Part shown: positions 46,703 through 64,000 of the stretch, in pieces
Layout of the letters: each line of letters begins with the position of its first letter
How positions within the stretch are numbered: position 1 is the first letter of the stretch
Source of the DNA: an uncultured Chloroflexia bacterium
GTDB taxonomy: Bacteria; Chloroflexota; Limnocylindria; Limnocylindrales; CSP1-4
Direction: 5' to 3'
Length of the DNA: 64,000 nt
NCBI GenBank assembly: GCA_963766735.1
Contig: CAVYBU010000004.1
Span: forward strand, 32,001-96,000
Notes under the pieces: model-generated
What the model saw: only the letters and a program-made list of their open reading frames with translations
Databases searched by the model: none
Told to the model about the DNA's origin: nothing
Made by a program: the position numbers and the translations under genes

Positions 46703-46724
46703 CTACCTCCGGCGAGAAACCGGA

Positions 46725-46749: not shown

Positions 46750-46782
46750 CCCAGGCACGTTACGTGGTGAGGTTCGAGCCCG

Positions 46783-47811
46783 TCAGCGGAGCCCGGCGGC
46801 GGCGAGTGAGATCACGTCGGCCGCGTCGGCCTGGGTGACGAACCCGGGGCCGGTCATGATCAGGCCGGTCCCATCGCCGGTGGGCAGGTTCTTGGTCTGG
46901 ATGTACTGGATCATGAACATCAGGGAGTCATAGCCCTGGATGTACTGCTGCTGGTCGACGGCGAACTCCATGTTCCCGTCCTTGATCGCGTTGAGCACGT
47001 CGGTGGACAGGTCGAAGGTCGCGGTGCGGATCGTGCCGGTCAGGCCGGCCTCCTCGACCGCCAGCAGCATCGGAGACGCTGCAGACGGGCCCAGGGTCAG
47101 GATGCCGTCGATCGTCGGATCGGCCTGGAACGCCGCCTTGATCGTCGCCGTGATCCCGGCCGGGTCAGAGATCTGGCCCGTGAGGACCTTGTCGCTGCCG
47201 TCAACGCCCATGCCATCGAAGAAGCCGTTGCAGCGGTCGGTCAGCGCCTGGTTGGCGACCTCCTGGTTGAAGCAGACCGGGTTCTTGACCCCGGCCTCCT
47301 TGAACTTGGTCCCGGCGCCGAGGCCGGCCTCGTACTCCGTCTGGCCGACGTGGGCGATGAGGCCGAGCTCCTTGAAAACGGTGGAGCCGGAGTTGATCGA
47401 GATGACCGGGATCCCGGCGGCGACGGCCTTCTGGATGGACGGCCCGAGTGCCTCGGCATTCGGGATCGACACGATCAGGCCCGACGGCTTCTTGGCGATG
47501 GCCGCGTCGATGAGCTGCGACATCTTGACGTAGTCGCTCTCGGCATCGGGGGCGCTGTAGTTGTACGTGATCCCGAAGTCCGAGGCGGCGTTCTTGAAGC
47601 CGTTGCGGACCACGCCCCAGAACCCGTCCACGGCCTGGCCGTGGGTCACGACCTCGATGCTGATGTTGTCACGGGTGACCAGGACGCCATCGGCGTCAGC
47701 GCCACCACCGCCACCACCCGCGTCGCTCGCGGCGGGCTCCGACGACCCGCAGGCGGCGACGAGGATCGCGACGCCGGCAAGTGCGACAAGTGCCCTGCTT
47801 CGCAGAAACAT
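46783..47811 (-). CDS. Sugar (inositol-type) ABC substrate-binding lipoprotein
   Basis: Lipobox VAAC, VVTHG..DGFWGVVRNG, GIPVISINSG, VDQQQYIQGY, TGPGFVT. Confidence 0.88.
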   Translation of the reverse strand: MFLRSRALVALAGVAILVAACGSSEPAASDAGGGGGGADADGVLVTRDNISIEVVTHGQAVDGFWGVVRNGFKNAASDFGITYNYSAPDAESDYVKMSQLIDAAIAKKPSGLIVSIPNAEALGPSIQKAVAAGIPVISINSGSTVFKELGLIAHVGQTEYEAGLGAGTKFKEAGVKNPVCFNQEVANQALTDRCNGFFDGMGVDGSDKVLTGQISDPAGITATIKAAFQADPTIDGILTLGPSAASPMLLAVEEAGLTGTIRTATFDLSTDVLNAIKDGNMEFAVDQQQYIQGYDSLMFMIQYIQTKNLPTGDGTGLIMTGPGFVTQADAADVISLAAAGLR

Positions 47812-48083
47812 GCTCGTGCTCCTCCATGTTCCGGGGCGACCTGCCCCGTGTTGCTCCCTGGGTGCCAGATGCGGCGCCCCCCGAGCGGGATGGCCGTGCG
47901 CCCGCAACCGCTCGCCTGCCGCATCGTTGGTGCTTACCGATCCTTTGTCAACCGGGAGTTTGCACCATCCAAGAGGCGCGGTGGCGGCGTACCCGTCGCA
48001 TCGCCGACCGCTCCCGGGCGTGTCGGCCCGGTCCGGCGCTACGATGGTGCTCGAGGTCCGCCACATCGACGCCACGATACTGT

Positions 48084-48095
48084 GTAATCGGTTAC
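48084..48095. promoter_or_regulatory. LacI-type operator
   Basis: GTAATCGGTTAC in the divergent ABC/dehydrogenase intergenic region. Confidence 0.75.
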
Positions 48096-48207
48096 CTGTG
48101 AAGCCCCAAACTGTCGCCACGGGAACCGCCTCGAAGCATCAGCTGCTCCGCGTGGCTGTGTGCGGAGCCGGTCGTACCGGACAGACAGCGCGAACGAGGA
48201 GGCCCAG

Positions 48208-49356
48208 ATGAGCAACACGGTCCGGATCGGCATCGTGGGCACCAGCTGGTGGGCCGACGCCATGTACCTGCCGGCGCTCACGAACCACCCGCTGGCGGAC
48301 GTGCGGGGCGTGGTGGGCGGCACCCGCGCGGAGCACACCCGCGAGTTCGCGGCGCAGTGGGGCATTCCCGGCGCATACGACACGCTCGACGCCATGCTCG
48401 CTGCGGAGCCGCTCGACGCGCTGGTGATCCTGAGTCCCAACGTGCATCACTTTCCGTACACGATGGCGGCGCTCGAGCGCGGACTCCACGTCCTGTGCGA
48501 GAAGCCGCTGGCCTTGACCTCTGCAGAGGCCCGCCTGATGACCGAGGCCGCCGAGCGGGCCGGCGTCGTCACCATGGTGCCGTTCACATACCGCTTCATG
48601 CCGGTCAACCGCTATCTCAAGGAGCTCGTGGACGAGGGCTACATCGGGCGCCCGTACCACCTGAACATGCGCTACTACACCGGCTACGGGCGATCTGGCG
48701 AGTACAGCTGGCGCTTCGACGTCGACCAGGCAGGCTCCGGCGTCACCGGTGACCTGGCGTCACACTGGGCCTACCTGGCGCGCTGGTTCTATGGCGAGAT
48801 CTCGGCCGTCACTGCCGTGTTCGGCCATGCCGTGCCGCGGGCGCCGAGGCCCGACGGCGTCCCGTTCACCGCGGGCGAGGACTCCGCCATGATCCTGCTG
48901 GAATTCGAGAACGGTGCGACCGGATCGCTTCACGTGTCCTCCGTGGCGTACGCGCCCGGTCCGTTCGGGCAGCGCCATGAGATGGACCTGCACGGCAGCG
49001 ATGGCAGCCTGCACGCGATCACGGACTGGGACCTCGTCCAGCGGGTGGACGGCTGCCGGGCGGACGAGCCCGCGACCCATGAGCTACCGATCCCGGACCG
49101 CCTGTTCGGTGGTGCCCGCCGCGACACGGTCGGCAACACCTACAAGGACACGTTCCGCCAGGCCGACCACATGGCGCGCGGGTTCGTCACGGCGATCGCC
49201 CAGCGGACGCCGGCCTCCCCCGACTTCCGCGACGGCCTGGCCGTTCAGCGTGTGCTGGACGCGGCGGGCCGCAGCGCTCGCGAGGGGCGGCGCGTTTCCA
49301 TCGCGGAAATCGTCGCCGACGGGGCCTCGGCGGTGGATCCGGCACACCCGTCGTGA
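48208..49356 (+). CDS. Gfo/Idh/MocA-family oxidoreductase
   Basis: IGIVGT, HVLCEKPL, GDLASH, ED.A, PDFRDG. Confidence 0.9.
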   Translation: MSNTVRIGIVGTSWWADAMYLPALTNHPLADVRGVVGGTRAEHTREFAAQWGIPGAYDTLDAMLAAEPLDALVILSPNVHHFPYTMAALERGLHVLCEKPLALTSAEARLMTEAAERAGVVTMVPFTYRFMPVNRYLKELVDEGYIGRPYHLNMRYYTGYGRSGEYSWRFDVDQAGSGVTGDLASHWAYLARWFYGEISAVTAVFGHAVPRAPRPDGVPFTAGEDSAMILLEFENGATGSLHVSSVAYAPGPFGQRHEMDLHGSDGSLHAITDWDLVQRVDGCRADEPATHELPIPDRLFGGARRDTVGNTYKDTFRQADHMARGFVTAIAQRTPASPDFRDGLAVQRVLDAAGRSAREGRRVSIAEIVADGASAVDPAHPS

Positions 49357-49435: not shown

Positions 49436-50581
49436 ATGAACTCCCGCGAGCGCATCACCGCGGCCCTCTCCCACCGCGAGGCGGACCGCATCCCGATCGA
49501 CCTCGGCGGGACGATGGTCACCTCGATCACCATGGCCGCCTACCTTCCCCTGCGCAAGCACCTCGGGATGCCCGATGAGCCGGTCGCCGTCTCTGATCTC
49601 GTCCAGCAGCTGCCGTACCTGGGCGAGGACCTGCTGGACCGCATGGGCTCCGATGTCCGGGCCGTCCTCCTGCCGCCGGAGATGGTGCAGCCGCCCGAGC
49701 TGATCGACGACGGCGACTACTGGGGGTGGGTGGACCCGTGGGGCGCGAAGCTCCGGATGCCCAAGCGGAACGGCCTGTACTTCGACTGGGTCGGCCACCC
49801 ACTGGCGGACCTCACGGACGAGTCGCTCGACGACTACCGGTGGCCGGCGTTCGAATCGTCCGCGAACCTCGCGGCCATGCGGGAGCAGGCGCTCGGCCTC
49901 CACACGACAACCGACTTCGCGCTGGCCGGCACCGCCAGCATTGGCGGCGGGATCTTCGAGCAGGCATGCCGTCTCGTGGGCACGGAGCAGTTCATGATGG
50001 CGATGCTCACCGATCGAGCCGTTGCCGATCGCCTGCTCGAGCAGCTCACCGAGCACTACATCGAGGCGGTGACCCGGCAGCTCGACGCATTCGGCGAGTT
50101 CCTGGACGTCGTTCAGTACGGCGACGATCTCGCCTCCCAGCAGACGTGGCTGATCAGCCCCGACACCTACGTCGCGATGATCAAGCCGCGCCAGCACCGC
50201 CTGTTCGAGGCGGTCAGGTCCAGGACCTCCGCGAAGCTCATGTTCCACAGCTGCGGCGCCGTCTTCGACGTCATCCCGCACCTGATCGACATCGGGGTGG
50301 ATGTGGTCAACCCGGTCCAGGTCTCGGCGAGAGGCATGGACACGGCGCGGCTCAAGTCGGCCTACGGCAGGGACATCGTGTTCTGGGGTGGCGGGGTCGA
50401 CACCCAGGGCGTGCTGCCGTTTGGGAGCGAGGACGACGTCCGTGCGGAGGTCGTCAGGCGCATCGAGGACCTGGCTCCCGGTGGCGGCTTCGTGTGGGCA
50501 CCGGTCCACAACGTGCAGGCGGGGGTTCCTCCCGCGAACATCGTCGCCGCGTTCGACACCGCCCGCACCTACGGGCTGTAG
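49436..50581 (+). CDS. URO-D/MtaA-CmuA superfamily protein (not true HemE)
   Basis: SRERI..ADRIPID, GDDLASQ, FHSCG, NPVQ, WGGGVDTQ, PGGGFV..HNVQ..PPANI; lacks the HemE RQAGR motif. Confidence 0.8.
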   Translation: MNSRERITAALSHREADRIPIDLGGTMVTSITMAAYLPLRKHLGMPDEPVAVSDLVQQLPYLGEDLLDRMGSDVRAVLLPPEMVQPPELIDDGDYWGWVDPWGAKLRMPKRNGLYFDWVGHPLADLTDESLDDYRWPAFESSANLAAMREQALGLHTTTDFALAGTASIGGGIFEQACRLVGTEQFMMAMLTDRAVADRLLEQLTEHYIEAVTRQLDAFGEFLDVVQYGDDLASQQTWLISPDTYVAMIKPRQHRLFEAVRSRTSAKLMFHSCGAVFDVIPHLIDIGVDVVNPVQVSARGMDTARLKSAYGRDIVFWGGGVDTQGVLPFGSEDDVRAEVVRRIEDLAPGGGFVWAPVHNVQAGVPPANIVAAFDTARTYGL

Positions 50582-50595
50582 CCCGAGGGCGACCG

Positions 50596-51390
50596 TCAGG
50601 AGCGGCTGAACGCGGTCCGGAACCGCTCCAGCGCCACCACGTCGTCGCCGCTCGCGAACGATTCCAGGCCCACCACGCCCCGGTAGCCGATGTCCTCGAG
50701 GGCCGTGGCCACAGCCGGCCAGTTGACTTCGCCCGTTCCCGGCTCCATCCGCCCGGGGACGTCCGCCACCTGGATCTCCCCGATGAGCGGCCCGGCCGTG
50801 CGCACGAGCTCGACCAGGTTCCCCTCCCCGATCTGGGCGTGGTACAGGTCCAGCATCATCCGCACGCCCGGTCGGTCGAGCGTCCCGACCAGGGTCATCG
50901 TGTCCTCGGCCCGCCCGAAGGGAACGCCGGGGTGGTCGGTGTGGAGATTGAGGTTCTCGAGGCAGAACACCACGCCGTTGGCCTCGCCGAGGTCGGCCAG
51001 CTCCTCGAGCGTCCGGTAGGCGTTGAGCCACATCCGGCCGGTCGTCACGGCCTGGGGCCGGAATGGGAGACCGCCACGCGACCCGTCCAGCTCCGCGCCG
51101 TGGACGACCAGGCGCGGGCAGTTGAGCTTCTTCGCGGCCTCCACCGAGAGCTTCGCGGTGCGCACCATCTCGCGACCGCCATCGGCGTCGTACAGGTCCC
51201 CGTGGACGTAGCCGGTCATCGTGGACCACGTGGCCCCGATCGACGCCACGGCCTCGAGGTCCTTGGCGGTCCAGTCCCACATCTCGACCTGGAAGCCAAG
51301 CTCGTGGATCCTGCGTACCCGGTCCAGGTACGGGAGGTCGAGGAACACCATCTCAGTCGTGACGGCCAGCGGGAACATCGGGGTGCTCAT
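50596..51390 (-). CDS. Hydroxypyruvate-isomerase-like TIM barrel (possible inosose isomerase)
   Basis: LENLN..DHPG, MLDLYHAQIGEGN, QVADVPGRMEPGTGEVN, GLE. Confidence 0.82.
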   Translation of the reverse strand: MSTPMFPLAVTTEMVFLDLPYLDRVRRIHELGFQVEMWDWTAKDLEAVASIGATWSTMTGYVHGDLYDADGGREMVRTAKLSVEAAKKLNCPRLVVHGAELDGSRGGLPFRPQAVTTGRMWLNAYRTLEELADLGEANGVVFCLENLNLHTDHPGVPFGRAEDTMTLVGTLDRPGVRMMLDLYHAQIGEGNLVELVRTAGPLIGEIQVADVPGRMEPGTGEVNWPAVATALEDIGYRGVVGLESFASGDDVVALERFRTAFSRS

Positions 51391-51454
51391 GGGGGGTTCT
51401 CCTTCCCGAGAAGATGCTCCGAGCGGGTCCTGCAGACTCGAAACACCGCTGATC

Positions 51455-51466
51455 GTAATCGATTGC
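51455..51466. promoter_or_regulatory. LacI-type operator
   Basis: GTAATCGATTGC upstream of the isomerase gene. Confidence 0.75.
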
Positions 51467-51644
51467 GTCGCGCGGGTTCGTCCCCGCTCACGGCTGGACA
51501 CGTCCCATTCCCTGTGCCGGGGACCGGCCGAGCGACCGCGAACGATGCAGGGCGGTGACGACGGACGAGCGGCGAGAGCGGACGTTGGGATGCCTGCGTC
51601 GCGGCTCGACCACCTTGCGCGGACGCCAACCGGACGCATACCAT

Positions 51645-51656
51645 GTAATCGGTTAC
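51645..51656. promoter_or_regulatory. LacI-type operator
   Basis: GTAATCGGTTAC directly after a TACCAT -10 box upstream of iolG. Confidence 0.75.
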
Positions 51657-51702
51657 CTGCGAAGCCCAAGCCGTCGCCGCAGGACCCTCTTGGAGGCCTC
51701 AC

Positions 51703-52701
51703 ATGCTTCGCGTGGCTTTGTTCGGAGCCGGCCGTATCGGCCAGGTTCATGCACGCTCCGTCGCCGAGTCCGGTGGTGCCCAGCTGGCCTGGGTCTGCGA
51801 TCCCATCGAAGGGGCGGCAACGACCCTGGCGGGCAGCCACGGAGCGCGCGCGAGCGCAGAGCCCCAGGATGCGCTCGAGGACCCGAGCGTCGATGCCGTC
51901 CTGATCGCCTCATCCACCCCGACCCACGTCGACCTGATCCGGCGCTCGGTGCTCGCCGGCAAGAAGGTCTTGTGCGAGAAGCCGATCGACCTCGACATGG
52001 GGGCCATCGACCAGTGCTGGCGCGATATCGCCGGCCATGCGCCGTTCGTGATGCTCGGCTTCAACCGGCGCTTCGACCCCTCGTTCCGCGAAGTCCGCGA
52101 GCGGGTCGCGGCCGGCGAGATCGGGCCGATTCGCGCCCTGCGGGTCATCAGCCGCGATCCCGCGCCGCCGCCGGCCGCCTACCTCGGCGTGTCCGGGGGC
52201 ATGTTCCGCGACATGACGATCCACGACTTCGACATGGCCCGCTTCCAGCTGGGCGAGATCGTCGAGGTCCAGGCGATGACGTCCACGAACGGACTCGAGA
52301 TGTTCGAGGCCGTCAACGATCATGCCCAGGCGATCGTGGTGATGCGTGCGGCGTCGGGTGCCTTGTGCACGATCGTCAACAGCCGCAGCTGCGCCTACGG
52401 CTACGACCAGCGCCTCGAGGCGTTCGGAGACCTCGGGTCGCTCGAGGCCGGCAACATGACCGCCACGACAGTCCGCGCCTTCAGCGCCTCGGAAACGGAG
52501 GCGGCGGGCCCCGTCCTGAACTTCTTCCTGGAGCGCTACATGCCGGCCTACAAGGCGGAGTTCGCCGAGTTCCTGGCGGCGATCAATGAGGATCGCGCCC
52601 CGTCCGTGGGATTCGCCGACGGCCGCGCCGCCCTCGTCCTCGCCGAGGCGGCAGGCGAGAGCGTTGCGACCGGGCGGGCTGTCCCGATCCCCGGCGCCTG
52701 A
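51703..52701 (+). CDS. iolG: myo-inositol 2-dehydrogenase
   Basis: GAGRIG, CEKPID, GFNRRFDP, SRDP, DMTIHDFD, YGYDQRLE, FFLERY. Confidence 0.88.
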   Translation: MLRVALFGAGRIGQVHARSVAESGGAQLAWVCDPIEGAATTLAGSHGARASAEPQDALEDPSVDAVLIASSTPTHVDLIRRSVLAGKKVLCEKPIDLDMGAIDQCWRDIAGHAPFVMLGFNRRFDPSFREVRERVAAGEIGPIRALRVISRDPAPPPAAYLGVSGGMFRDMTIHDFDMARFQLGEIVEVQAMTSTNGLEMFEAVNDHAQAIVVMRAASGALCTIVNSRSCAYGYDQRLEAFGDLGSLEAGNMTATTVRAFSASETEAAGPVLNFFLERYMPAYKAEFAEFLAAINEDRAPSVGFADGRAALVLAEAAGESVATGRAVPIPGA

Positions 52702-52805: not shown

Positions 52806-53837
52806 CTAGGCGGTCACCTCGTCCAGGCGGACGGGCCGGTTCTCGCGCCAGCTCCTGGTGCAGGCCACGGCGAGGCGCAGCGTCTCGAACGCATCGTCCG
52901 GCCCCGGCTTCGGCGTGCGACCGGCCCCCAGGTCCGCGAAGAAGACCTCCAGCTCGCGCCGGTAGGCGATCTCGAAGCGGTCCATGAAGTCGCCGTAGAG
53001 GTCGCCCTCCGCGGCCACCTTGCGGAAGTGCGTCGCAGGGGTCTTCTGGCCGCCGTCCACAACCACCTTGCCCACGGCGCCCGCGACCTCGGCCCGAATG
53101 TCGTAGCCCCAGGTGGAGTGCCGGGCCGTCTCGACCACGCCCAGGGCCCCGTTGCGGAACTTCATCATGATCACGGACGTGTCCCAGTCGTCCGCCTTCG
53201 CGAAGCGGTCGTCGAACAGGACCGACGCCCAGGCATGGACCTCCTCCACCTCGCCCACCAGGAACCGGGCCACGTCGAGGTCATGGACGGACATGTCCAG
53301 GAACGAGCCGCCGCAGGTCAGCAGGAACTCGAGGGGCGGCGGATTGGTGTCCCGCGAGAGGGCGCGAAACTGCTCGATCCGGCCCAGCTCACCGCTGTCG
53401 ATCAGCTGCTTGGCTCGCTCGTAGCCGGGGTCGAAGCGGCGCATGAACCCGACCTGGACCGGGATCCCGGTCTCGCGCCAGAGATCCACGATCCGCGCGG
53501 TGTCGGCCAGCTCCTGGGCAATCGGCTTCTCGGTCCAGACCGCCTTTCCGGCGCGCAGCGCGGCCTCGATCAGCTCGGCGTGGGTCGTGGTGGGCGTGAC
53601 GATCACGACGGCGTCCACGTCAGGATCGTGAACCGCCTCCATCGGGTCGGTGGAGGCGCGCCGGGCCCGGGCGAGATCTCGCCCGCGTTCCGCCGCCCCC
53701 GCGTCCGGGTCCGCGACGACGATCACGTTCGCGTTGGGGATCGCCCCCAGGTTGCGGACGTGGACCCGGCCCATCCGGCCGGCACCGAGCACGGCCACGC
53801 CGATGTTGTTGGGATCCCTGAGCGTGAAGCTGCCCAT
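52806..53837 (-). CDS. Inositol-2-dehydrogenase-like Gfo/Idh/MocA protein
   Basis: GAGRMG, EKPI, GFMRRFDP, DMSVHDLD, GYDIRAE. Confidence 0.85.
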   Translation of the reverse strand: MGSFTLRDPNNIGVAVLGAGRMGRVHVRNLGAIPNANVIVVADPDAGAAERGRDLARARRASTDPMEAVHDPDVDAVVIVTPTTTHAELIEAALRAGKAVWTEKPIAQELADTARIVDLWRETGIPVQVGFMRRFDPGYERAKQLIDSGELGRIEQFRALSRDTNPPPLEFLLTCGGSFLDMSVHDLDVARFLVGEVEEVHAWASVLFDDRFAKADDWDTSVIMMKFRNGALGVVETARHSTWGYDIRAEVAGAVGKVVVDGGQKTPATHFRKVAAEGDLYGDFMDRFEIAYRRELEVFFADLGAGRTPKPGPDDAFETLRLAVACTRSWRENRPVRLDEVTA

Positions 53838-53951: not shown

Positions 53952-54836
53952 TCAGCCGGTGCCGGCTCCGACCAGCAGCGCCTCCAGGTACTCGCGGTTC
54001 TTGCGTGCCGTGATCATCGGGCTGCCCGGGGTTGTGTCCTGCTCCAGGACAAACCAACCGTCGTAGCCGCGCCCGAGCAGATTTGCCACGACCTCGGGTA
54101 CCTGCGCGATCCCCTCCCCCAGCGGCGGGAAGATGAAGGTCTTGAGCGCGGTGCCGAAGCTCCAGCCCTCGGCCCTGGCCTTCGCCAGGACCTTGCCGTC
54201 GACGTCCTTGAGGTGGATGTGGGCGACGCGGTCGCCGTACCGGTCCAGCATCGCCAGGCTGTTGCCGCCCCCGTAGGCGAGGTGCCCGATGTCCAGGCAC
54301 CAGCCCACCTTCGTCGGATCCGTCTCGTCCAGGAGGCGGGCGGTCTCCGCAGGGGTCTCGACATACGTGCCCACGTGATTGTGGAAGACGACCTTCATGC
54401 CCAGGGGCACGAGGTTGTCGGCAAGGTCGTGGAGCCCCGCGGCCAGGTTCCGCCACTGCGCGTCGGTCAGGCCGTTCGGCTCATCCACGTGCCCCGCTTC
54501 TCCGCGGCGCCGGTCATCCCCGCCCTCCGCGGCGATCAGGAGCCGGCCACCGGTGGCGTGAAGCCGGCGGGCGATCTCCATGGCCTTCGCCATCTCGGCG
54601 TCGTAGCGATCGGCATCGCGGAAGCCCAGGCCCACGAACGCGCCGACCATGTCCAGGCCGCGGGCGTCGAGCGCCTCCTTCAGCTCGGCGGGGTCCTCGG
54701 GCATGCCCGGGCCCCACTCGGTGGCGTCGTACCCGGCCTCCACGAACTCGTCCATCATCTGCCGGTACGGAAGCCAGGCCCGGTACTCCGGGACATCGGG
54801 GCTGTTCCAGTTGACGGGCGCGGTCGCGATCCTCAC
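53952..54836 (-). CDS. IolE-like inosose dehydratase, copy 2
   Basis: APVNW, HNHVGT, LDIGH, HIHLKD, PLGEG, LEQD; coupled to iolD copy 2. Confidence 0.8.
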   Translation of the reverse strand: MRIATAPVNWNSPDVPEYRAWLPYRQMMDEFVEAGYDATEWGPGMPEDPAELKEALDARGLDMVGAFVGLGFRDADRYDAEMAKAMEIARRLHATGGRLLIAAEGGDDRRRGEAGHVDEPNGLTDAQWRNLAAGLHDLADNLVPLGMKVVFHNHVGTYVETPAETARLLDETDPTKVGWCLDIGHLAYGGGNSLAMLDRYGDRVAHIHLKDVDGKVLAKARAEGWSFGTALKTFIFPPLGEGIAQVPEVVANLLGRGYDGWFVLEQDTTPGSPMITARKNREYLEALLVGAGTG

Positions 54837-56719
54837 AGCAGCTCCCTCCGCTGGTTGCCCACGGCCGTCTCATACCGCTCGCGGGCGCCGCGGACTCCGT
54901 CCTGCGCGCTCACGGCAGCCGGCGGCACGTCCCACCATCCTTCGTAGCCGGGCGCCCGCTTCTCGGGCGAGACGGCGACATGGATCACGGTGATCCGGTC
55001 GGCTGCGCGGGCCGCGGCCAGGGCGGCCCGGATGTCATCCTCGGTGCGCGCGTAGAGGGCGAGGGCGCCCATCGACTCCGCGTGCTTCTTGAAATCCACC
55101 GGCACGTAGCCGCCCGTGAGGCGATTGCGCGCCGGATCGCGGAACCGCAGCTCGTTGCCGAACTGCCCGATCCCCACGCTCGCGGCGAGATCCTTGATGC
55201 ACTGGAAGCCGTGGTTGTCGAAGACGACGACCGTGATCCTGATCCCCTCGGCGACCGCGGTCACGATCTCGGAGTTGAGCATCAGGTAGGTGCCGTCGCC
55301 GATGGCGACCACCACCTCACGTTCCGGCTCGGCAAGCTTGACGCCAAGGCCGGCCGGGATCTCGTAGCCCATGCACGAGTAGCCGTACTCGAGGTGGTAG
55401 GCCTTGGAGTCCTCGGGCCGCCACAGCTTGAGCAGGTCGCCCGGAAGGCTGCCGGCGGCACAGACGACCGTGGCATGGCCGCCAACCGCGTCGTTGACGA
55501 TGCCGATGACCTCGGGCTGGGCCAGCTCCTCGGTCTCGCCGTTTGGCGTGCGGTGATAGTCGACGCGGGCGTCCCACTCGGCCTTGAGGTCCGTGACCCG
55601 TTGCCGGTACTCCGGCGAGGTGCCCGGGTGGCCGGCTTCCGCCAGCGCGGCCGTGATGGCGGTCAGCGCCTCGCGGGCATCTGCGACCACCGGCACGGAG
55701 CGGAGCTTGGCCGCGTCGAACCCGTTGACGTTGATGCCCACGAAGGACACGTCGGGATCCTGGAACTGGGCCTTGGAGGCCGTGACAAAGTCGCCCAGGC
55801 GCGTGCCGACGGCGATCACGAGGTCCGCGTCGCGCGCGAGCCGGTTGGCGGCGAGACCCCCGGCGGCGCCGACCGGGCCCGCGTTGAGGGGATGGTTCCA
55901 GGGCAGGACGCCCTTGCCCGCCTGGGACTCCGTGACCGGGATCCCGAACCTGGTGGCGAGGTCGTCGAGAGCCGCCTCCGCCCCGGAGTAGATGGCGCCA
56001 CCGCCGGCGATGATGATCGGCCGCGCGGCGGCGCGGATGAGGTCCACGACCTCAGCGACGACCGCCTCGTCCGGACGGGGCCGCCGGACGCGCCAGACAC
56101 GGCGCTCGAAGAAGCGCTCCGGCCAGTCGTAGACCTCGGACTGCACGTCCTCGGGCAGGGAGATCGTCACGGCGCCGGTCTCGGCCGGGTCGGTCAGGAC
56201 GCGGAAGGCCTCCGGGAGGCTGGACAGCAGCTGTTCGGGGCGGGAGATGCGGTCGAAGTAGCGGGAGACGGGGCGGAAGGCATCGGAGGCAGAGACGTCG
56301 CGCTCCACCGGGTGCTCGACCTGCTGGAGCACCGGGTCCGGGAGGCGGTTGGCGAAGTAGTCGCTGGGGAACAGCAGCACCGGCAACCGGTTGATGGTGG
56401 CACCCGCGGCGCCGGTGATCATGTTCGTGGCGCCCGGGCCAATGGACGAGGTGCAGGCGAACGTCTGGAGGCGGTTCTTGTGCTTCGCGTACGCGGCAGC
56501 CAGGTGCACCTGCGCCTGCTCGTTCTGCGGGCGGTAGTAGGGCATCTCGCACTCGTCGCCGAGCTCCTCGAGAGCCTGCCCCAGGCCGGCGACGTTGCCG
56601 TGCCCGAAGATGCCCCAGACACCGGCGATGAAACGGGACTGGACCCCGTCCCGCTCCACGTACTGCTCCGCCATGAAGCGGACGATCGCCTGCCCGACGG
56701 TCAGCTGAACCGTGCCCAC
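54833..56719 (-). CDS. iolD: THcHDO hydrolase, copy 2
   Basis: GIFGHGNVAG, NEQ, TSSIGPGATNM, DPVLQQ, AGSLPGDL, EYGYSCMGYEI; GAGGAG RBS before the GTG at 56719. Confidence 0.92.
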   Translation of the reverse strand: MGTVQLTVGQAIVRFMAEQYVERDGVQSRFIAGVWGIFGHGNVAGLGQALEELGDECEMPYYRPQNEQAQVHLAAAYAKHKNRLQTFACTSSIGPGATNMITGAAGATINRLPVLLFPSDYFANRLPDPVLQQVEHPVERDVSASDAFRPVSRYFDRISRPEQLLSSLPEAFRVLTDPAETGAVTISLPEDVQSEVYDWPERFFERRVWRVRRPRPDEAVVAEVVDLIRAAARPIIIAGGGAIYSGAEAALDDLATRFGIPVTESQAGKGVLPWNHPLNAGPVGAAGGLAANRLARDADLVIAVGTRLGDFVTASKAQFQDPDVSFVGINVNGFDAAKLRSVPVVADAREALTAITAALAEAGHPGTSPEYRQRVTDLKAEWDARVDYHRTPNGETEELAQPEVIGIVNDAVGGHATVVCAAGSLPGDLLKLWRPEDSKAYHLEYGYSCMGYEIPAGLGVKLAEPEREVVVAIGDGTYLMLNSEIVTAVAEGIRITVVVFDNHGFQCIKDLAASVGIGQFGNELRFRDPARNRLTGGYVPVDFKKHAESMGALALYARTEDDIRAALAAARAADRITVIHVAVSPEKRAPGYEGWWDVPPAAVSAQDGVRGARERYETAVGNQRRELL

Positions 56720-56787
56720 TGATCGCTCCTCTCGACTCACTCGAACCCACCTGGCTCACTCGACCGGGATAGATCGTCTCATACCGT

Positions 56788-56799
56788 GCAATCGATTAC
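56788..56799. promoter_or_regulatory. LacI-type operator
   Basis: GCAATCGATTAC upstream of iolD copy 2. Confidence 0.75.
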
Positions 56800-56992
56800 A
56801 AGGTCCAGGGACCCCGGCAGGACCGCCGATGCCCATAGGCTAGTATTGGAGTCCTGCCGCTGTGCGCCGTTCCCGCTGTCCCCGGCCCGGCCCCAAGGAG
56901 ATCACGATGCCCAGGCTGCGATCGGCACAACGTTCCACGAGGGACTCGCTGCCGACGGGACCCGGGCAGGCGGCCGAGGCACGGGCCTTGGG

Positions 56993-57643
56993 ATGACCCG
57001 TCCCTTCGTGTTCTGGGGCTGCCACGAGATCCGCGAGAACCTCGGCGTGCGCGCGGACACCGTGCTTGAGCTCGCGGAGCACCTCCGGACGATCGACTCG
57101 GATTCGATCTTCTACCACTCCGTCCGGTGCCTGATGCGCCACCAGGCCGGCCGCAATGCCTATCCCGACGACTTCGCCCGCTGGGTCGCGCAGGAGGCGG
57201 GCGACCCGGAGCTGGCCGAGCGACTGGCCCTGTTCTCGCCCTTCGACCTGCCATCGATCGAGGACTTCCGGGCGCACCTCATCGCCATCATCGAGGATCA
57301 CCTCGACTCCTCACCCGTTGCCCGGGTCACCGCCCGGACGCCGTTCCGCTTCCTGCGGGGGCACATGGCCACGCTGCCCATCGGGCTCGACGCCGATGAC
57401 CTCTCAACCCTCCGGGCCGGTCTGGCAGCGGTTGACGAGAGCTCCATCTACTTCCACACGGTGGAGTCGCCCGGTGAGCGGGGCGATTGGCGCAACGACA
57501 TCGCCGCCTGGGTGGACGCGGACCTCGGGCTGCCCACCCTGACCATCCGCCTTGCGGAGGTGGACCCGTTCGTGGCCGGCCTGGGACACACCAGGAGCCT
57601 GCTCCTCGCGGCGATCGACGGCTACTCAGGCGAGACGGCATGA
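56993..57643 (+). CDS. DUF5752 / OrfY-like TreT-associated protein
   Basis: Two internal repeats PFxF..SIxxH..DxAxWV; ATGA coupling to treT. Confidence 0.75.
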   Translation: MTRPFVFWGCHEIRENLGVRADTVLELAEHLRTIDSDSIFYHSVRCLMRHQAGRNAYPDDFARWVAQEAGDPELAERLALFSPFDLPSIEDFRAHLIAIIEDHLDSSPVARVTARTPFRFLRGHMATLPIGLDADDLSTLRAGLAAVDESSIYFHTVESPGERGDWRNDIAAWVDADLGLPTLTIRLAEVDPFVAGLGHTRSLLLAAIDGYSGETA

Positions 57644-58902
57644 CGATGCCCCGCAGGGACCCCACCCGCACCGGTTCGGGGATGGGCGCCGCGTCTCATC
57701 CGCTCGCACAGTACGAGGGCCTGGCCGCGCCTGGGACCCTTCGACTGGCAAGGCACCTGGCCGGGGACCTCGCCGGACACTCGTTCCTGCACATCAACGC
57801 GACCAAGCGGGGCGGAGGCGTCGCGGAGATCCTCGAGCGCATCCTGCCACTCCTGGACGAACTCGGGATCCGGACCCGCTGGGAGGTGATCAGCGGGGAG
57901 CCCGAGTTCTACGTCGCCACGAAGAGGATGCACAACGCCCTCCAGGGCTCGAAGGAGCCGCTGACCACCGCGGACCAGGAGGTCTACAACGAGACGAACC
58001 GGCAGGCGATCGGGACGCTTGACCTGGACGCCGAGCTGGCGATGATCCACGATCCCCAGCCTGCGGGGCTGATCGACGGCCGGCCGAACGGTGCCCGATG
58101 GATCTGGCGCTGCCACATCGACCTCTCCGCCCCCCAACGCGCGGCGTGGGGGTTCCTCGAGCCGAACGTCGCCCGCTATGACGGCACGGTCTTCCACCTC
58201 GCTGCCTTCGCCCGAAGGCTCCCCGTCCCCACGTACCTGATCCACCCGAGCATCGACCCGCTGTCGGCCAAGAACCGGGAGATGGCGCGCCCGGAGGTCG
58301 AGCGCCGCCTGGAGGCGATGGGCGTCCCGTTCGATCGGCCACTGATCGTCCAGGTCTCGCGGTTCGACCCGTTCAAGGACCCGGTCGGCGTGATCGACGC
58401 GTACCGGCTGGTCCGCAGGTTCCAGGACGCCGTCCTCGTCCTGGCGGGCGGGTCCGCGGACGACGACCCGGAGGGCGCGGAGGTGCTGGCCCGGGTCAGG
58501 GAGGCGGCGAACGGCGAGCCCGACATCCACGTGCTCGAGCTTCCGCCCGATGCCCACGAGGACATCAACGCCCTCCAGACGGCCGCCACGGTCGTGGTCC
58601 AGAAGTCTCTCCGGGAAGGCTTCGGCCTGACCGTGGCCGAGGCGATGTGGAAGGGCAAGGCGGTCGTCGGCGGCGCCGTCGGCGGGGTCGCCGTCCAGAT
58701 CGAGGACGGGGTGACGGGTCTCCTCGTCCACTCGGTGGAGGGGGCGGCGTATGCGCTGCGTCGCCTGCTGGGAGACGCCGAGCTGCGGGATGGCATGGGT
58801 GCGCTGGCCCGGGAGCACGCTCGGCGGAACATCCTCATCACCCGGCACCTGGTGGACTACCTGCTCCTGCTCCGCCTCCAGCTGGAGGCATCCCGTGGCT
58901 GA
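57640..58902 (+). CDS. treT: Trehalose glycosyltransferring synthase (GT4)
   Basis: GGGVAEIL, TKRMHNALQG, IHDPQP, WRCHID, QVSRFDPFKD, QKSLREGFGLTVAEAMWK. Confidence 0.88.
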   Translation: MTMPRRDPTRTGSGMGAASHPLAQYEGLAAPGTLRLARHLAGDLAGHSFLHINATKRGGGVAEILERILPLLDELGIRTRWEVISGEPEFYVATKRMHNALQGSKEPLTTADQEVYNETNRQAIGTLDLDAELAMIHDPQPAGLIDGRPNGARWIWRCHIDLSAPQRAAWGFLEPNVARYDGTVFHLAAFARRLPVPTYLIHPSIDPLSAKNREMARPEVERRLEAMGVPFDRPLIVQVSRFDPFKDPVGVIDAYRLVRRFQDAVLVLAGGSADDDPEGAEVLARVREAANGEPDIHVLELPPDAHEDINALQTAATVVVQKSLREGFGLTVAEAMWKGKAVVGGAVGGVAVQIEDGVTGLLVHSVEGAAYALRRLLGDAELRDGMGALAREHARRNILITRHLVDYLLLLRLQLEASRG

Positions 58903-61120
58903 CCGCCTGGTCGTGGTCGCGAACCGACTGCCCCTCACCGTGCGGCGGACCGGTGGGCGGTGGCATGGTGAGCGAAGCAGCGGCGGGCTCGTCGCGGCGC
59001 TCTCGCCGGTCCTGGAGCGGGTCGAGGGCCTGTGGATCGGCTGGCCGGGCGATGCCCTCTCGGGCGATCTCACGGGACGGGCAGAGCTCCTGGAGTCGCT
59101 GGAGCGCGAGCAGTCGCTCGCGTCCGTGGACCTGCCCCCGAAGATCAGCCGGGCGTTCTACGAGGGATACAGCAACAACACCCTGTGGCCGCTCCTGCAC
59201 GGGTTCCCGTCCCGGGTGACGTTCGATCGGGAGGCCTACCATGCCTATCGTGACGCGAACGGCCGGTTTGCAGCCGCCGTGCTGGACCGGCTTCGGCCGG
59301 ACGACCTCGTCTGGGTGCACGACTACCAGCTCATGCTCGTGCCGAACCTCCTCCGCGAGCAGCGGCCCGACGTGCGCGTCGCGTTCTTCCTCCACATCCC
59401 GTTCCCGCCGCCGGAGGTCTTCCGGATCCTTCCCCAGCGCGAGGAGCTCCTGACCGGGCTGCTCGGAGCGGACGTCATCGGCTTCCAGACGCACGAGCAC
59501 CTCGGGGCCTTCCGACGGGCCCTCCTGCAGGTCCTGGGCATCGAGAGCCGCATGGATCGGGTCGAGATCGACGGACGAACCGTCGCGCTGGAGGCTCGGC
59601 CGATCGGGATCGTGCCCGACGAATGGGAGCGGCTCGTGACCGCCGACGCCGATGTTGCCCGCCGGATCCGCGAGATCCATGGCCGCCACGCCGGGCGGAA
59701 GCTCGTCTTCGCCGTCGACCGCCTTGACTACACGAAAGGGATCCCGGAGCGTCTCCGCACGTTCCACCATTTCCTGGTCTCGCGGCCGGAATGGCGGGGC
59801 AAGGTGACGCTGATCCAGGTGGCCGTCCCGTCGCGAGAGCGGATCGCGAGGTACGCGGCGCTTCGGCGCGAAGTCAACGAGGTGGTCGGCGAGATCAACG
59901 GCGAGCTCGGTACCGCGGAGTGGAATCCCATCATCTACCTCCGCCGCTCGGTGTCGCGTGCGGAGCTTGCAGCCTTGTATGCGGCCGCAGACGTCGGCTG
60001 GGTCGCGTCGCTCCGGGACGGCATGAACCTCGTGGCCAAGGAGTTCGTGGCCTGCCAGCAGGACCGGGCGGGGGTCCTGCTGCTGAGCGAGTTCGCGGGC
60101 GCGGCCGGTGAGATGGGCGAAGCGATCCGGGTCAATCCCTACGATGAGACCGGCTCCGCCGCTGCGCTCGAGCGAGCTCTGACGATGACCGACGAGGAGC
60201 GCCGGGAGCGGCAGGAGGCCCTGCTGTATCGCGTCCGCCAGAACAGCGCGGTCGCCTGGGCGGAGCGATCCGTGGCGGACCTCGAGCGGACCGTCGCCGA
60301 GCGGAGCCTGAGCCCCGGGGCAATCCCAGCTCCTCCGATCGTGGAGATCCGTCGCGCCTACCGGGCCGCGGCTCACCGCGCCTGCTATCTCGACTACGAC
60401 GGCACCCTCACCCCCCTCGTTGCCCGCCCGGCCGATGCGGTACCCGGGCCGGCGGTCGTCGACATCGTCACGGCGTTGGCGCGCAACCGAAAGACGACGC
60501 TCGTCATCGTCTCGGGCCGGCCCGCCGCAGATCTCGAACGCTGGTTCGGCCACGTCGAGGGGGCATGGCTTGCAGCGGAGCACGGGGCCCTGCTCCGGGA
60601 GCCCGGAGGACACGATTGGCGCCCGCTTCGACCGGGAGCCGACAACGAGTGGAAGTCCCGCGTTCGACCGGTGCTGGACCACTTTGCCGAGCGCGCCCCG
60701 GGGAGCAGGGTCGAGGAGAAGGAGTACGCGCTGGCCTGGCACTTCCGGCTGGTCGAACGGGAGTTCGGCGACTGGCTGGCGAACGAGCTCGCGGTGGCGC
60801 TCGACCAGCAGCTGGCTGGCACCGAGCTCGCCGTGCTCCGCGGCAACAAGGTCGTCGAGGTCCGTTTCGCGTGGGCGAACAAGGGCGAGGTGGCCGCTCA
60901 CGTCCGTGCGGCAGGTCCAACGCCGGCGTTCGAGATCGCGATCGGCGATGACCGGACGGACGAAGACCTGTTCGAGCGCCTCCCCGAGGAGGCCTACACG
61001 ATCCGCGTCGGGCCCGGCTCCACCAGGGCGCGCTTCCGCATCGCCGGTCCGGAGGCTGTGATCGGGCTGCTGGCCAGCATCGTCGCCCGGCGCACCGGGG
61101 GCGCCGCTCCAGGTCCCTGA
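58895..61120 (+). CDS. Bifunctional trehalose-6-phosphate synthase/phosphatase (OtsA-OtsB fusion)
   Basis: [45 protein letters not shown]; HAD domain [21 protein letters not shown]. Confidence 0.93.
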
Positions 61121-61178: not shown

Positions 61179-62705
61179 CTAGGAGTTGCCGGGGAAGACC
61201 AGGCTCAGCGGCCCCTGCTTGCCGGGCTCGGGCCAGCGCTCGGTGACCATCTTCTGCTGGGTGAAGAAGCGGACACCGTCCTCACCGCGCATGGCCATGT
61301 CGCCGATCGCCGATTCCTTGGCGCCCGAGAAGCTCATGTAGCCGGCCGGGACCGGGATCGGCACGTTGACGCCGATCATCGGGACCTCGACCTCGAGCTT
61401 GAACCGCCGGGCCGCGCCGCCGTCGGTCGTGAACACCGCGGTGCCGTTGGCGTACTTGTGGTCGTTGATGAGCTTGAGGCCTTCCTCGAACGTGTCGGCG
61501 TACACGATTCCGAAGACCGGGCCGAAGATCTCCTCCTGGTAGACCTGCATGCTCGGGGTGACGTGGTCGAACAGCGTCACGCCGAGGAAGAAGCCATCGG
61601 GATTGGGACCCTCGAACGTCCGGCCGTCGACCAGGAGCTCGGCTCCCTCCGCCTCGCCGACGCCGATCCACTTGATGATCGACTCGCGGTGGTCGTTGCT
61701 GTAGATCGGGCCCATGTCGACGCCCGCGTCCATGCCGTTGCCGATCTTGAGCCGTGCGATCCGCTCCATGATCTTGGGCTTGAGGCGCTCGCCGGTGTCG
61801 CCGACCGCGATCAGCAACGTCTGGGCCATGCAACGCTCGCCGGCGGAGCCGAAGCCCGCCGCGACCGCCGCGTCCGCGGCAAGATCCATGTCCGCGTCCG
61901 GCAGGACGAGCATCGCGTTCTTGGCGCTGGTGTAGGACCCGACGCGCTTGCCGCGCTTGGTCCCCTCCTCGTAGACATACCGGCCGACGGCCGTGGAGCC
62001 GACGAACTGGATCGCGCGGATGTCCTCGTGCTCGACGATCGCCTTGACCGCCTCCCGGCCCCCATAGACGACGTTCAAGGTGCCGTCGGGGCCACCGGCC
62101 TGCGTCCACAGCTCGGCCTGGAGCTGCGTGGCGCCGGGCGTGTGGGAGGACGGCTTGAAGACGACCGTGTTCCCGCACATCAGGGCGATCGGGTAGATCC
62201 AGGTCGGGACCATCACCGGGAAGTTGAACGGCGTGATCGCCGCCACCACGCCCAGCGGCTGGCGCAACGTGAACGCGTCCACGTTGGTGGAGACATTGGG
62301 GCTCATCATGCCGGCCAGGTGGCCCGGCAGGCCGCACGCGAAGTCCACGGTCTCCAGGCCGCGGAGGACCTCGGCCAGGGCATCCGGGAAGGTCTTGCCG
62401 TGGTCGCGCGTGATGAGCGCGGCCAGCTCTTCGCGATGCTCGTACATGAGGCCGCGGAACGCGAAGAAGATGTTGGAGCGGGCGATGAGCGGCATGTCGC
62501 GCCAGGCCGGGAAGGCAGCCTTCGCAGCGGCCACCGCCTGGTCGACCTCTGCCACGCCACCGCGCGGCACGCGGGCGAAGACCTGACCGGTCGCCGGGTT
62601 GGTGATGGGGCCGGTCTGGTCGGGCAGGACCTCGACGGCCGTGCCGTTGATCCAGTGCGAGAGGATCGGCAGGACCGCCGTCTGGTCAGGAGTTTCGATC
62701 GCCAC
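61179..62705 (-). CDS. iolA: CoA-acylating (methyl)malonate-semialdehyde dehydrogenase
   Basis: ITPFNFP, FVGST, AKN, GSAGERCMA, EEIFGP, GVNVPIPVP. Confidence 0.92.
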   Translation of the reverse strand: MAIETPDQTAVLPILSHWINGTAVEVLPDQTGPITNPATGQVFARVPRGGVAEVDQAVAAAKAAFPAWRDMPLIARSNIFFAFRGLMYEHREELAALITRDHGKTFPDALAEVLRGLETVDFACGLPGHLAGMMSPNVSTNVDAFTLRQPLGVVAAITPFNFPVMVPTWIYPIALMCGNTVVFKPSSHTPGATQLQAELWTQAGGPDGTLNVVYGGREAVKAIVEHEDIRAIQFVGSTAVGRYVYEEGTKRGKRVGSYTSAKNAMLVLPDADMDLAADAAVAAGFGSAGERCMAQTLLIAVGDTGERLKPKIMERIARLKIGNGMDAGVDMGPIYSNDHRESIIKWIGVGEAEGAELLVDGRTFEGPNPDGFFLGVTLFDHVTPSMQVYQEEIFGPVFGIVYADTFEEGLKLINDHKYANGTAVFTTDGGAARRFKLEVEVPMIGVNVPIPVPAGYMSFSGAKESAIGDMAMRGEDGVRFFTQQKMVTERWPEPGKQGPLSLVFPGNS

Positions 62706-62752
62706 GTGCTGTGCCTCCGGTGTGATGTGGGTCCGAGAGATGGAGTTTCGGG

Positions 62753-63847
62753 TCAGGCCGGCTTGACGTCCGGGTTCGGCAGGACGATGTCGCGTACGAC
62801 GGCCTGGAGATCATGGTACGACGAGACGAAGCCGCGCAGCGTGCGCGCGGTGGCTCCGAAGCCCTCGAACTCCGCGGGCACCATGCCATCGGGCTCGTAG
62901 GCGCGGACGAAATCCGGGACCCGGCGCTGCAGATCGTCGATGAGCTGGGGATCGACGGGGACGTCGATCCGGCTGGCGGGCTCGATGCCCGAGGCGTTGA
63001 ACCGGACCTGCCAGGGGTACGGCATCGTGAGGACGACGTCGCCGCCCACGAGCTCGGTCCAATGGAGCCGGTGGCGGTACGCCGCCGCCAGCAGCCGGGT
63101 CCGGTACCCGCGTTCCTGGAAGATGCCGTAGGCGCGCTTGAACGCGGCGATGCCCGCCCAGTTGGCGGCAGACGGGTCGAGGGCGATGCTGTCCTTCTCG
63201 ACGAGCACCTTGATCCAGTCGTCCAGGCGCCCGATCATCAGCGAGCAGACCGGGCTGAACCGGCTGGTGTCGCCGCCAGCCTGCTCGTACCGGCGCAGGC
63301 CCCGCTCCACCGCCTCGGCCGCAGCGATGCACTGGGCAACGGTGAAGACAACCGTGACGTTGGCAACGACGCCCCGCGCCGTGGCGTCCTCCACGGCCTG
63401 GAGGCCGGCTGCAGTACACGGAAACTTGACCTGGATGTTCGGAGCCAGGGTGCTGAAGTGGACCGCCTGCTCGACCATGCGGTCGGGGGTGCGGTAGTTG
63501 GCAGGGTTCGTCTGCAGCGACAGCCTGCCCTTGCGGCCGTCCTCCTGCTCGAACACCGGCGCCAGGACCCCGGCGCCACGAGCGCCCATCTCCTCGATCA
63601 GCGCCCAGGTGAGCTCGACCTCGGACCAGGTGGGGTTGGCGGCCGCCATCTCGCGGACGCGCGGCACCCAGTGGTCCTTCTCCTTCTTCATCACCTCGAC
63701 CACGATCACGGGGTTCGAGGTGGCGCCGGTCCCGCCGCGCTCGACGGCGTAGGCGAGCTCTGCGATCGCGCAGGAGTCGTTCCAGAAGTCGGTGGGCGTC
63801 TGCTCCACCATGCGGGATAGCGGGCTGTTGACCGTGATCAGGGTCAT
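62753..63847 (-). CDS. Atypical transaldolase-family protein, copy 2
   Basis: WNDS, GATSNP, QVKFP, NVT; ATGA-coupled to iolB and directly upstream of iolA. Confidence 0.85.
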   Translation of the reverse strand: MTLITVNSPLSRMVEQTPTDFWNDSCAIAELAYAVERGGTGATSNPVIVVEVMKKEKDHWVPRVREMAAANPTWSEVELTWALIEEMGARGAGVLAPVFEQEDGRKGRLSLQTNPANYRTPDRMVEQAVHFSTLAPNIQVKFPCTAAGLQAVEDATARGVVANVTVVFTVAQCIAAAEAVERGLRRYEQAGGDTSRFSPVCSLMIGRLDDWIKVLVEKDSIALDPSAANWAGIAAFKRAYGIFQERGYRTRLLAAAYRHRLHWTELVGGDVVLTMPYPWQVRFNASGIEPASRIDVPVDPQLIDDLQRRVPDFVRAYEPDGMVPAEFEGFGATARTLRGFVSSYHDLQAVVRDIVLPNPDVKPA

Positions 63848-64000
63848 CGGGTGGCGTCCTCCGTGGCCGCAACGGGTGCGGCCGGATCCCAGTTCATCAA
63901 CCAGGCGTGGTCGGGGTCGAGCGTGAAGTACCAGGCTCGGTTGGGGCCGGCCATCACGTTGAGGTAGTAGCAGTCGTACCCATGGGGCGCACCCACCGGG
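63844..64000 (-). CDS. iolB: 5-deoxy-glucuronate isomerase, C-terminal fragment (truncated by the window edge)
   Basis: Hand translation PVGAPHGYDCYYLNVMAGPNRAWYFTLDPDHAW... matches the IolB C-terminal motif; absent from the ORF track. Confidence 0.85.
   Translation of the reverse strand, partial: PVGAPHGYDCYYLNVMAGPNRAWYFTLDPDHAWLMNWDPAAPVAATEDATR

Follow-up and report, generated by a model that had tools for sequence, protein, structure and literature searches.

How does a bacterium complete the catabolism of inositol when two enzymes of the pathway are not found in its genome? The question is raised by a 64,000-nucleotide stretch of DNA (the window; contig C4:32001-96000 of genome G000) from an uncultured soil member of the Chloroflexota, assigned to the Limnocylindria by the company of its closest protein and DNA relatives and known from a metagenome-assembled genome (MAG) of 3.6 Mb in 35 contigs, with 93.85% completeness and 4.22% contamination. 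In the canonical myo-inositol pathway, IolB yields 2-deoxy-5-keto-gluconate (DKG), IolC phosphorylates it, and IolJ cleaves it to dihydroxyacetone phosphate (DHAP) and malonate semialdehyde, the substrate of IolA. IolG, IolE, IolD, IolB, and IolA were all found, together with a transporter, and between iolB and iolA lies a gene for a transaldolase-family protein, TAL1. Judging by sequence comparison, we consider it probable that TAL1 is a class I aldol enzyme that cleaves unphosphorylated DKG, a single enzyme in place of both IolC and IolJ. Most likely, an uncharacterized transaldolase-like enzyme completes inositol catabolism here without a kinase, by a route undescribed in the searchable literature. 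The genes on which the argument turns are as follows.

62753-63847, minus strand: TAL1, Q-type transaldolase-family protein of 364 aa (PF00923, 124.7 bits), candidate DKG transaldolase/aldolase
63844-64000, minus strand: 3' end of iolB (5-deoxy-glucuronate isomerase, TIGR04378); the gene extends to about 64714
61179-62705, minus strand: iolA, CoA-acylating malonate/methylmalonate-semialdehyde dehydrogenase of 508 aa (TIGR01722, 611.7 bits, cut-off 448.5; PF00171)
41180-42277, plus strand: TAL2, Q-type transaldolase-family paralog of 365 aa, with Gln and Met at the same positions as in TAL1
39259-41175, plus strand: IolD1, trihydroxycyclohexane-1,2-dione hydrolase (TIGR04377, 852.6 bits, cut-off 715)

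The gene order on the minus strand at the end of the window is iolB (3' end), TAL1, iolA. The stop codon of iolB and the start codon of TAL1 share the letters ATGA at 63844-63847, and iolA follows downstream of TAL1 after an intergenic gap of 47 bp. The first-pass annotation of this DNA had described a 364-aa transaldolase-family gene coupled to iolB and directly preceding iolA, which is what we see, and its placing of a paralog after iolD at position 41180 was also correct: TAL2 starts 4 nt past the end of IolD1 and is 57% identical to TAL1 over 356 residues.

The same annotation had noted that IolC and IolJ are lacking among the visible iol genes. Neither a PfkB kinase nor a class II aldolase is encoded on the window's contig, and a search beyond it, through the whole genome, did not find IolC, DUF2090, or an iol-linked class II aldolase either; the result that would have overturned the annotation's proposal, iolC and iolJ a little past the window's end, was thus looked for and not obtained, within the limits of a genome about 94% complete. 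No protein in the genome passes the IolC cut-off of 300 bits (TIGR04382); the best matches, on contigs C11, C17, and C3, reach 77.8, 74.4, and 73.1 bits. The three PfkB genes of the genome gave 78.2, 74.7, and 79.5 bits against the same cut-off; one of the three resembles a ribokinase. The whole genome also yielded no DUF2090, the domain that forms the aldolase half of bifunctional IolC. The sole class II aldolase (contig C2, 47.6 bits) has no known iol neighbors and is inseparable by sequence from a housekeeping aldolase.

What kind of protein occupies the place between iolB and iolA? TAL1 matches PF00923 (TAL_FSA) over residues 21 to 279 with 124.7 bits, well above the gathering score of 27. 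It falls below the cut-offs of the canonical transaldolase models (TIGR00876, 113.1 against 367; NF002881, 79 against 233.75; TIGR00874, 43.5 against 396.2) and below that of the FSA model (TIGR00875, 48.2 against 245.95 bits). The predicted Schiff-base lysine is Lys141, which aligns with the lysine of the "IKIP" strand in the transaldolase structures 3r5e and 3clm and is invariant in 32 of 32 aligned relatives. Asp24, Asn45, Thr165, Arg207, and Arg258 are also conserved when PDB transaldolases and relatives are aligned. An AlphaFold model of TAL1 (pLDDT 95.7) has the TIM-barrel fold of a full-length transaldolase; the top Foldseek matches to the model are all transaldolases, the best being 3r5e with a TM score of 0.82. 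By model match, predicted lysine, and modeled fold, TAL1 is a member of the transaldolase/FSA superfamily. A canonical Glu-type transaldolase is encoded separately on contig C30 (228.2 bits), so TAL1 is an extra paralog; each of five relatives that were checked likewise has its own canonical Glu-type transaldolase.

The active site sets TAL1 apart. The residue at the position of the catalytic glutamate (Glu96 in TalB; E93 in the Neisseria enzyme according to PDB entry 7oey) is Gln112, and Gln stands in place of Glu in all 34 diverse relatives, which are 31 to 86% identical to TAL1; this Gln-for-Glu exchange is what Q-type refers to. Met204 lies at the position of TalB Phe178 and FSA Tyr131; here we take the motif S202-x-M204-x-x-R207 to correspond to S176, F178, and R181 of TalB, on the strength of its spacing. 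FSA is described as having Gln at the place of the catalytic Glu and Tyr131 as its proton shuttle (PMC13259622), and PMC3962226 reports that the single change F178Y turns TalB into a dihydroxyacetone (DHA)-dependent aldolase. As predicted from the alignments, the active site of TAL1 is of neither the TalB nor the FSA type. The earlier designation of a "Schiff-base TAL/FSA enzyme" is thus upheld for the superfamily and for Lys141, but TAL1 is not a canonical transaldolase, with Gln for the catalytic Glu and scores below the cut-offs.

We then asked how constant the gene neighborhood is, using the best 80 related loci, all of which are Chloroflexota-type sequence. iolB is directly upstream of the TAL gene in 39 of the 80 (38 of 78 where at least 900 bp of upstream sequence is available), and where the downstream sequence amounts to 1.7 kb or more (68 loci), iolA directly follows TAL in 41; both genes flank TAL in 22 of the 66 loci that are informative on both sides. 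A quick maximum-likelihood tree (IQ-TREE; locus L044, which has an internal stop, was omitted) resolved two clades with an SH-aLRT value of 95. Clade I holds TAL1 and comprises 43 rows, 38 of them iolB-linked, with start/stop overlap. Gene-family clustering of 31 clade I loci returned IolB, LacI, IolD, TAL, IolA, IolE, Gfo, and IolG as recurrent families, plus unrelated upstream genes; no kinase family was recurrent in these loci. The same association appears in other Chloroflexota families, as IolD-IolB-TAL (G065), TAL-IolB (G142), and IolB-TAL (G024), and genome G200 has one kinase-free operon, IolG-IolE-ABC importer-IolA-TAL-IolD-IolB-Gfo. In genomes with the canonical arrangement, IolB-IolC-IolD-IolA (G094) and IolB-IolC (G121), IolC occupies the slot of TAL. 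In a relative, the iolB/TAL junction is bridged by a contig from an RNA library, which adds weak support. The G200 operon is closed by an aldo/keto reductase gene (L116, 4818-5675, minus strand), and it is conceivable that this enzyme handles free DHA or an aldehyde product.

The distribution of TAL and IolC across genomes was examined in a sample of 251 Chloroflexota genomes, in which TAL was counted at 50% identity or more. TAL was present in 17 genomes; IolB, IolD, and IolC were over their cut-offs in 50, 43, and 12, respectively, the IolD count including one genome (G227) flagged as unpublished, which enters into no other result. IolC was over its cut-off in none of the 17 TAL genomes. The test set consisted of the 23 genomes that have IolD over the cut-off and an IolB match with an E value of 1e-20 or lower: 7 have TAL, 12 have IolC over the cut-off, and none has both. 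The remainder comprises one genome with an IolC at 294.7 bits, one with a partial IolC beside IolD and IolB, and two with neither. We also looked at nine IolB regions from IolB-positive genomes that have neither TAL nor IolC. Eight contain an IolB-like gene without other iol genes, and the ninth (G007) reads IolD-IolE-IolG-IolB with nothing recognizable after it; no third solution to the DKG step was found among the nine. Twenty of the 43 IolD genomes lack an IolB match at 1e-20, for example seven of genus g61 and four of genus g25, several of them closed genomes; another ending of the inositol pathway probably exists.

If TAL1 acts at this point in the pathway, what would it do? Read from its keto end, DKG has the formula CH2OH-CO-CHOH-CHOH-CH2-COO- and corresponds to 5-deoxy-D-fructuronate; its configuration is D-threo (3S,4R), as in fructose, which fits with the canonical IolJ being a homologue of fructose-bisphosphate aldolase. 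IolB has no product other than DKG, and no other six-carbon compound of the pathway is known to give rise to malonate semialdehyde. TalB and FSA also use 3S,4R ketoses, and R181 of TalB binds the phosphate or anionic tail (PMC3962226). With gene content, synteny, family, residues, and phyletic pattern as the observations, we infer substrate, products, and acceptor as follows. IolG, IolE, and IolD would open the inositol ring to give 5-deoxy-glucuronate, which IolB would isomerize to DKG. The keto group of DKG, still unphosphorylated, would react with Lys141 of TAL1 to give an imine, and the C3-C4 bond (ketose numbering) would be broken to release malonate semialdehyde, which the adjoining IolA would convert to acetyl-CoA and CO2. 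The enzyme-bound DHA would then either be transferred to glyceraldehyde 3-phosphate (GAP) to give fructose-6-phosphate (F6P), as in the sulfofructose transaldolase route, or be protonated and released as free DHA. The Gln/Met active site does not clearly favor either outcome; we lean slightly towards transfer.

The first-pass annotation had also proposed that this route skips an ATP-dependent step. Nominally it does, since the phosphorylation of DKG is omitted, but the ATP balance stays the same, one ATP being spent instead by phosphofructokinase in the case of F6P or by a triose kinase in the case of free DHA; the variant saves genes, not energy. No Dak1-type DHA kinase was found in the genome. 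As for Dak2, the genome has a single protein, a 589-aa stop-to-stop frame that is probably not a DHA kinase. A glycerol kinase is present, and a route through free DHA is therefore plausible.

The proposed enzyme can be set against several known systems. IolC with IolJ or DUF2090, as in Bacillus subtilis, Salmonella, and Caulobacter, has the same place in the pathway, the same acid product, and the same operon slot by IolB/IolD. TAL1 would differ in being one enzyme with no phosphorylation of DKG, from an unrelated family, and with a predicted Schiff base rather than metal-dependent catalysis; its three-carbon unit would end in F6P (by transfer) or DHA, in contrast to the DHAP of the canonical route. 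The closest analogy in logic is SftT of sulfo-TAL sulfoglycolysis (BmSF-TAL, PDB 8bc3). SftT takes DHA from a fructose analogue with a non-phosphate anionic tail, and the leftover aldehyde is oxidized by a neighboring dehydrogenase. The likeness of TAL1 to 8bc3 is at the level of the superfamily only (32.7 bits, E value 3.9e-7, residues 109 to 196). SftT is about 220 aa, of the FSA/TalC type, and acts on a sulfonate, whereas TAL1 is a 364-aa protein of the long type with Gln112 and Met204 and a proposed carboxylate substrate. The canonical long transaldolases 3r5e (Corynebacterium glutamicum) and 3clm (Neisseria gonorrhoeae) superimpose on TAL1 with TM scores of 0.82 and 0.80, and canonical transaldolases including E. 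coli TalB have the Schiff-base Lys, Asp, Asn, Thr, and Arg in common with it; they are at most 22% identical to TAL1, in which their Glu is replaced by Gln and TalB Phe178 by Met. FSA and the F178Y and E96Q/F178Y variants of TalB are DHA-utilizing Schiff-base enzymes with a preference for 3S,4R. TAL1 shares the Gln of FSA (Gln59); FSA, however, is about 220 aa with a Tyr131 shuttle, and TAL1 is 364 aa with Met204.

A number of observations weigh against the assignment of TAL1 to DKG cleavage. The catalytic Glu and the FSA-type Tyr proton shuttle are both replaced (Gln112 and Met204), so the chemistry could differ from that of both TalB and FSA. The proposed role is drawn from comparative genomics. 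Clade II of the tree comprises 39 rows, two of which are library outgroups and 36 of which are loci without iolB directly upstream. Its members are about 70% identical to clade I, and many have iolA downstream. One MAG holds a member of each clade (loci L050 and L073), which makes the clades paralogous. Six TAL genomes lack IolB, and four of the five that were checked (G088, G058, G221, and G034) also lack IolD over the cut-off; no IolB was found in the genomes behind loci L056, L081, and L083. Because clade II is found alongside IolA in genomes that lack both IolB and IolD, the enzyme family is not inositol-specific, and its substrate range is wider than DKG or something else altogether. Two of the 17 TAL genomes (G154 and G199, of one genus) have a DUF2090 homolog and an IolC-like PfkB protein of 226 to 235 bits; these genomes carry 6 to 10% contamination, and TAL is not beside IolB in that genus. 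The 7/12/0 split is only suggestive, related genomes not being independent, and in a genome of less than full completeness the absence of a gene means "not found" and nothing further. An extra base in iolB, considered below, belongs to the same list. The expectation that this TAL clade keeps company with iolB and iolD and avoids iolC is thus in keeping with the 23 genomes and qualified by DUF2090 in G154 and G199 and by the TAL genomes without IolB. The larger claim of the first-pass annotation, that TAL replaces IolC and IolJ on unphosphorylated DKG, agrees with gene content, synteny, mutual exclusion, and the configuration of DKG, and is tempered by the sister clade, Gln112, and the frameshifted iolB.

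The neighborhood of clade II differs from that of clade I. A 595-aa phosphoenolpyruvate (PEP)-utilizing protein with a molybdenum (Mo)-hydroxylase cluster lies near TAL in 36 of the 41 loci without iolB, compared with 0 of the 39 with iolB. The neighbors in L057-L091 are a PRK08296-like PEP-utilizer without an ATP-grasp domain and an Mo-hydroxylase cluster of the xanthine dehydrogenase family, and in L045 and L046 the PEP-utilizer directly follows TAL on the same strand. A role for it as a triose kinase was considered and dropped; the resemblance to PEP-synthase/rifampicin-phosphotransferase-like proteins is confined to their C-terminal two thirds. In the genome under study, the PEP-utilizer and Mo-hydroxylase genes are on C30 (225207-233111), far from any TAL gene. 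A 441-aa neighbor of the PEP-utilizer gave no Pfam, NCBIfam, or PDB match.

Could TAL1 act on something other than DKG? A Q-type enzyme might cleave a different non-phosphorylated ketose or keto-acid that yields an IolA substrate, its iolB-linked use in one clade being just one of several, or it might act on another intermediate that derives from inositol, for example from a methylated or isomeric form. The pairing of clade II TAL and IolA in genomes that have neither IolB nor IolD is in keeping with this, as are the two parallel sets in the window (IolD1/IolE1/TAL2 and IolD2/IolE2/TAL1) and an MtaA-like methyltransferase beside corrinoid genes; the iolB linkage and start/stop overlap of 38 of the 43 clade I rows, and the position of DKG as the sole IolB product and sole known six-carbon source of malonate semialdehyde, make it unlikely. 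It is a little less likely still that TAL replaces IolJ only, with some other kinase, either outside the PfkB family or a distant PfkB encoded elsewhere, phosphorylating DKG and TAL acting on DKG-6-phosphate. The anion-site residues R207 and R258 are kept and would suit a phosphate as well as a carboxylate, and three PfkB genes are present elsewhere in the genome; these score far below the IolC cut-off, however, one being ribokinase-like and none being on the window's contig, and neither the 31 clade I loci nor the G200 operon provides a recurrent kinase. Least probable in our estimation is an ordinary pentose-phosphate transaldolase that acts on F6P and sedoheptulose-7-phosphate and sits in the iol cluster to rebalance carbon, DKG then being handled by another enzyme or by none. 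Every naming source does call the protein "transaldolase" or "transaldolase family protein," and the full fold is there, but the genome and its five relatives already have a canonical Glu-type enzyme, the Gln replacement is found in 34 of 34 relatives with scores far below the equivalog cut-offs, and a housekeeping role gives no rationale for the conserved placement of TAL beside iolA with iolB or iolD on its other side.

A rival of a different kind is that the route is dead in this strain and iolB a pseudogene, which we judge improbable, to about the same degree as the replacement of IolJ only. Only the last 52 codons of iolB are inside the window. The genome's only iolB matches TIGR04378 in two frames, with 218.5 bits (model positions 94 to 247) and 57.9 bits (positions 3 to 105), and alignment to locus L012 showed that the gene is split by one extra base at window position 64325 (L006:2325), beyond the window's end; there is no second iolB to make up for it. 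L012, which is 96% identical, has an intact iolB without the extra base, and the base is also absent from related contigs (96 to 97% identical) in runs X2 and X4, which belong to two other studies. The frameshift is thus seen in this assembly only. Several related long-contig MAGs have iolA or iolD genes split in a similar way, which suggests assembly indel errors, and both halves of iolB retain coding-type GC content at third codon positions. We read the frameshift as an assembly error or a strain-specific lesion, not as a feature of the system, and the cleavage of unphosphorylated DKG by TAL1 remains the reading that we prefer.

How far does the branch extend? A search with one representative per 50%-identity cluster retrieved 4089 clusters at E values of 1e-3 or lower, 328 of them at 1e-30 or lower. 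Source annotations name branch members only as "transaldolase" or "transaldolase family protein," and the members whose source organism is named come from Chloroflexota, Oligoflexales, a gammaproteobacterial MAG, and a Lentisphaerota isolate. With the divergent protein P0143 as the query (3 loci, one of them usable), no iol genes were found within 4.5 kb of TAL at that locus, L097, where the upstream genes are a MarR-like gene, a CBM9 protein, and a short-chain dehydrogenase. The library also contains a xylose-isomerase-like barrel of the IolE/IolI type joined to TAL (P0129, 655 aa) and TAL joined to KduI/IolB (P0147, 566 aa), which may be true fusions or gene-calling artefacts across frameshifts. 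A broader reading, which we put forward tentatively and hold to be somewhat less than an even bet, is that Q-type proteins form a family across phyla for non-phosphorylated acidic ketoses, in which the iol members would convert DKG and GAP to malonate semialdehyde and F6P and the sister clade would feed IolA from a source other than inositol.

The remainder of the iol region, between 38 and 64 kb of the window, brings the total to two IolD, two IolE-like, and two IolG proteins with one further Gfo/Idh oxidoreductase. It also encodes an IolI/IolO-like barrel, regulators of the IclR and LacI families, and a sugar ABC importer whose binding protein is of the rhizopine type. These features, in order along the window, are listed here.

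38302-39222, plus strand: IclR-family regulator, upstream of IolD1-TAL2
42485-43582, plus strand: LacI-family regulator, of a family that recurs in 26 of 31 clade I loci
43633-44553, plus strand: IolE1, IolE-like inosose dehydratase (TIGR04379, 182.8 bits, below the cut-off of 290)
44767-48120, minus strand: sugar-type ABC importer (ATPase, permease, and rhizopine/inositol-type binding protein)
48160-49356, plus strand: Gfo/Idh/MocA oxidoreductase
49436-50581, plus strand: MtaA/CmuA-like methyltransferase of the URO-D family, amid the iol genes
50596-51840, minus strand: xylose-isomerase-like TIM-barrel protein (IolI/IolO-like)
51703-52701, plus strand: IolG, inositol 2-dehydrogenase (TIGR04380, 378.6 bits, cut-off 355)
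52806-53837, minus strand: IolG-like dehydrogenase 2 (TIGR04380, 333.9 bits)
53952-54836, minus strand: IolE2, inosose dehydratase (TIGR04379, 217.1 bits)
54833-56740, minus strand: IolD2 (TIGR04377, 884.9 bits)
56786-61120: trehalose island between iolD2 and iolA, with a DUF5752 protein, a TreT-like trehalose synthase, and a fused OtsA-OtsB

At the position of the trehalose island, the loci of relatives have a shorter or a different insert. Corrinoid genes (a BtuF/BtuC-like importer, CobS, and CobT) lie at 32142-38339, a few kb from the MtaA/CmuA-like methyltransferase, and the two together could serve corrinoid-dependent O-demethylation of methyl-inositols such as pinitol ahead of ring oxidation. 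A 41%-identical homolog of the methyltransferase is encoded 6 kb from an IolB-like gene in genome G025 (L107). The genes that lie immediately upstream of iolB (C4:97157-103019) have a near-duplicate on contig C32, and tblastn matches the two contigs equally; either the assembly is redundant here or the bin contains a second strain.

A full-text literature search found no link between a transaldolase-family enzyme and inositol catabolism, in line with the first-pass annotation, which had known of no description of such a route. myo-Inositol catabolism is a textbook pathway that both genome surveys and automated pathway prediction use as a marker. A 2022 genome survey (PMC9430895) requires iolB, iolC, iolD, and iolE for inositol catabolism, and the word "transaldolase" is absent from it, supplements aside. 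Surveys that require iolC would score organisms of the kind described here as incomplete and would miss inositol use in abundant soil Chloroflexota. If the proposed role is true, it would be the first function for a large uncharacterized branch of the transaldolase superfamily, with a natural Gln/Met active-site solution distinct from those of TalB and FSA and a biocatalyst that accepts non-phosphorylated acidic ketoses. It would also give a textbook pathway a kinase-free ending, the carboxylate counterpart of the sulfo-TAL route.

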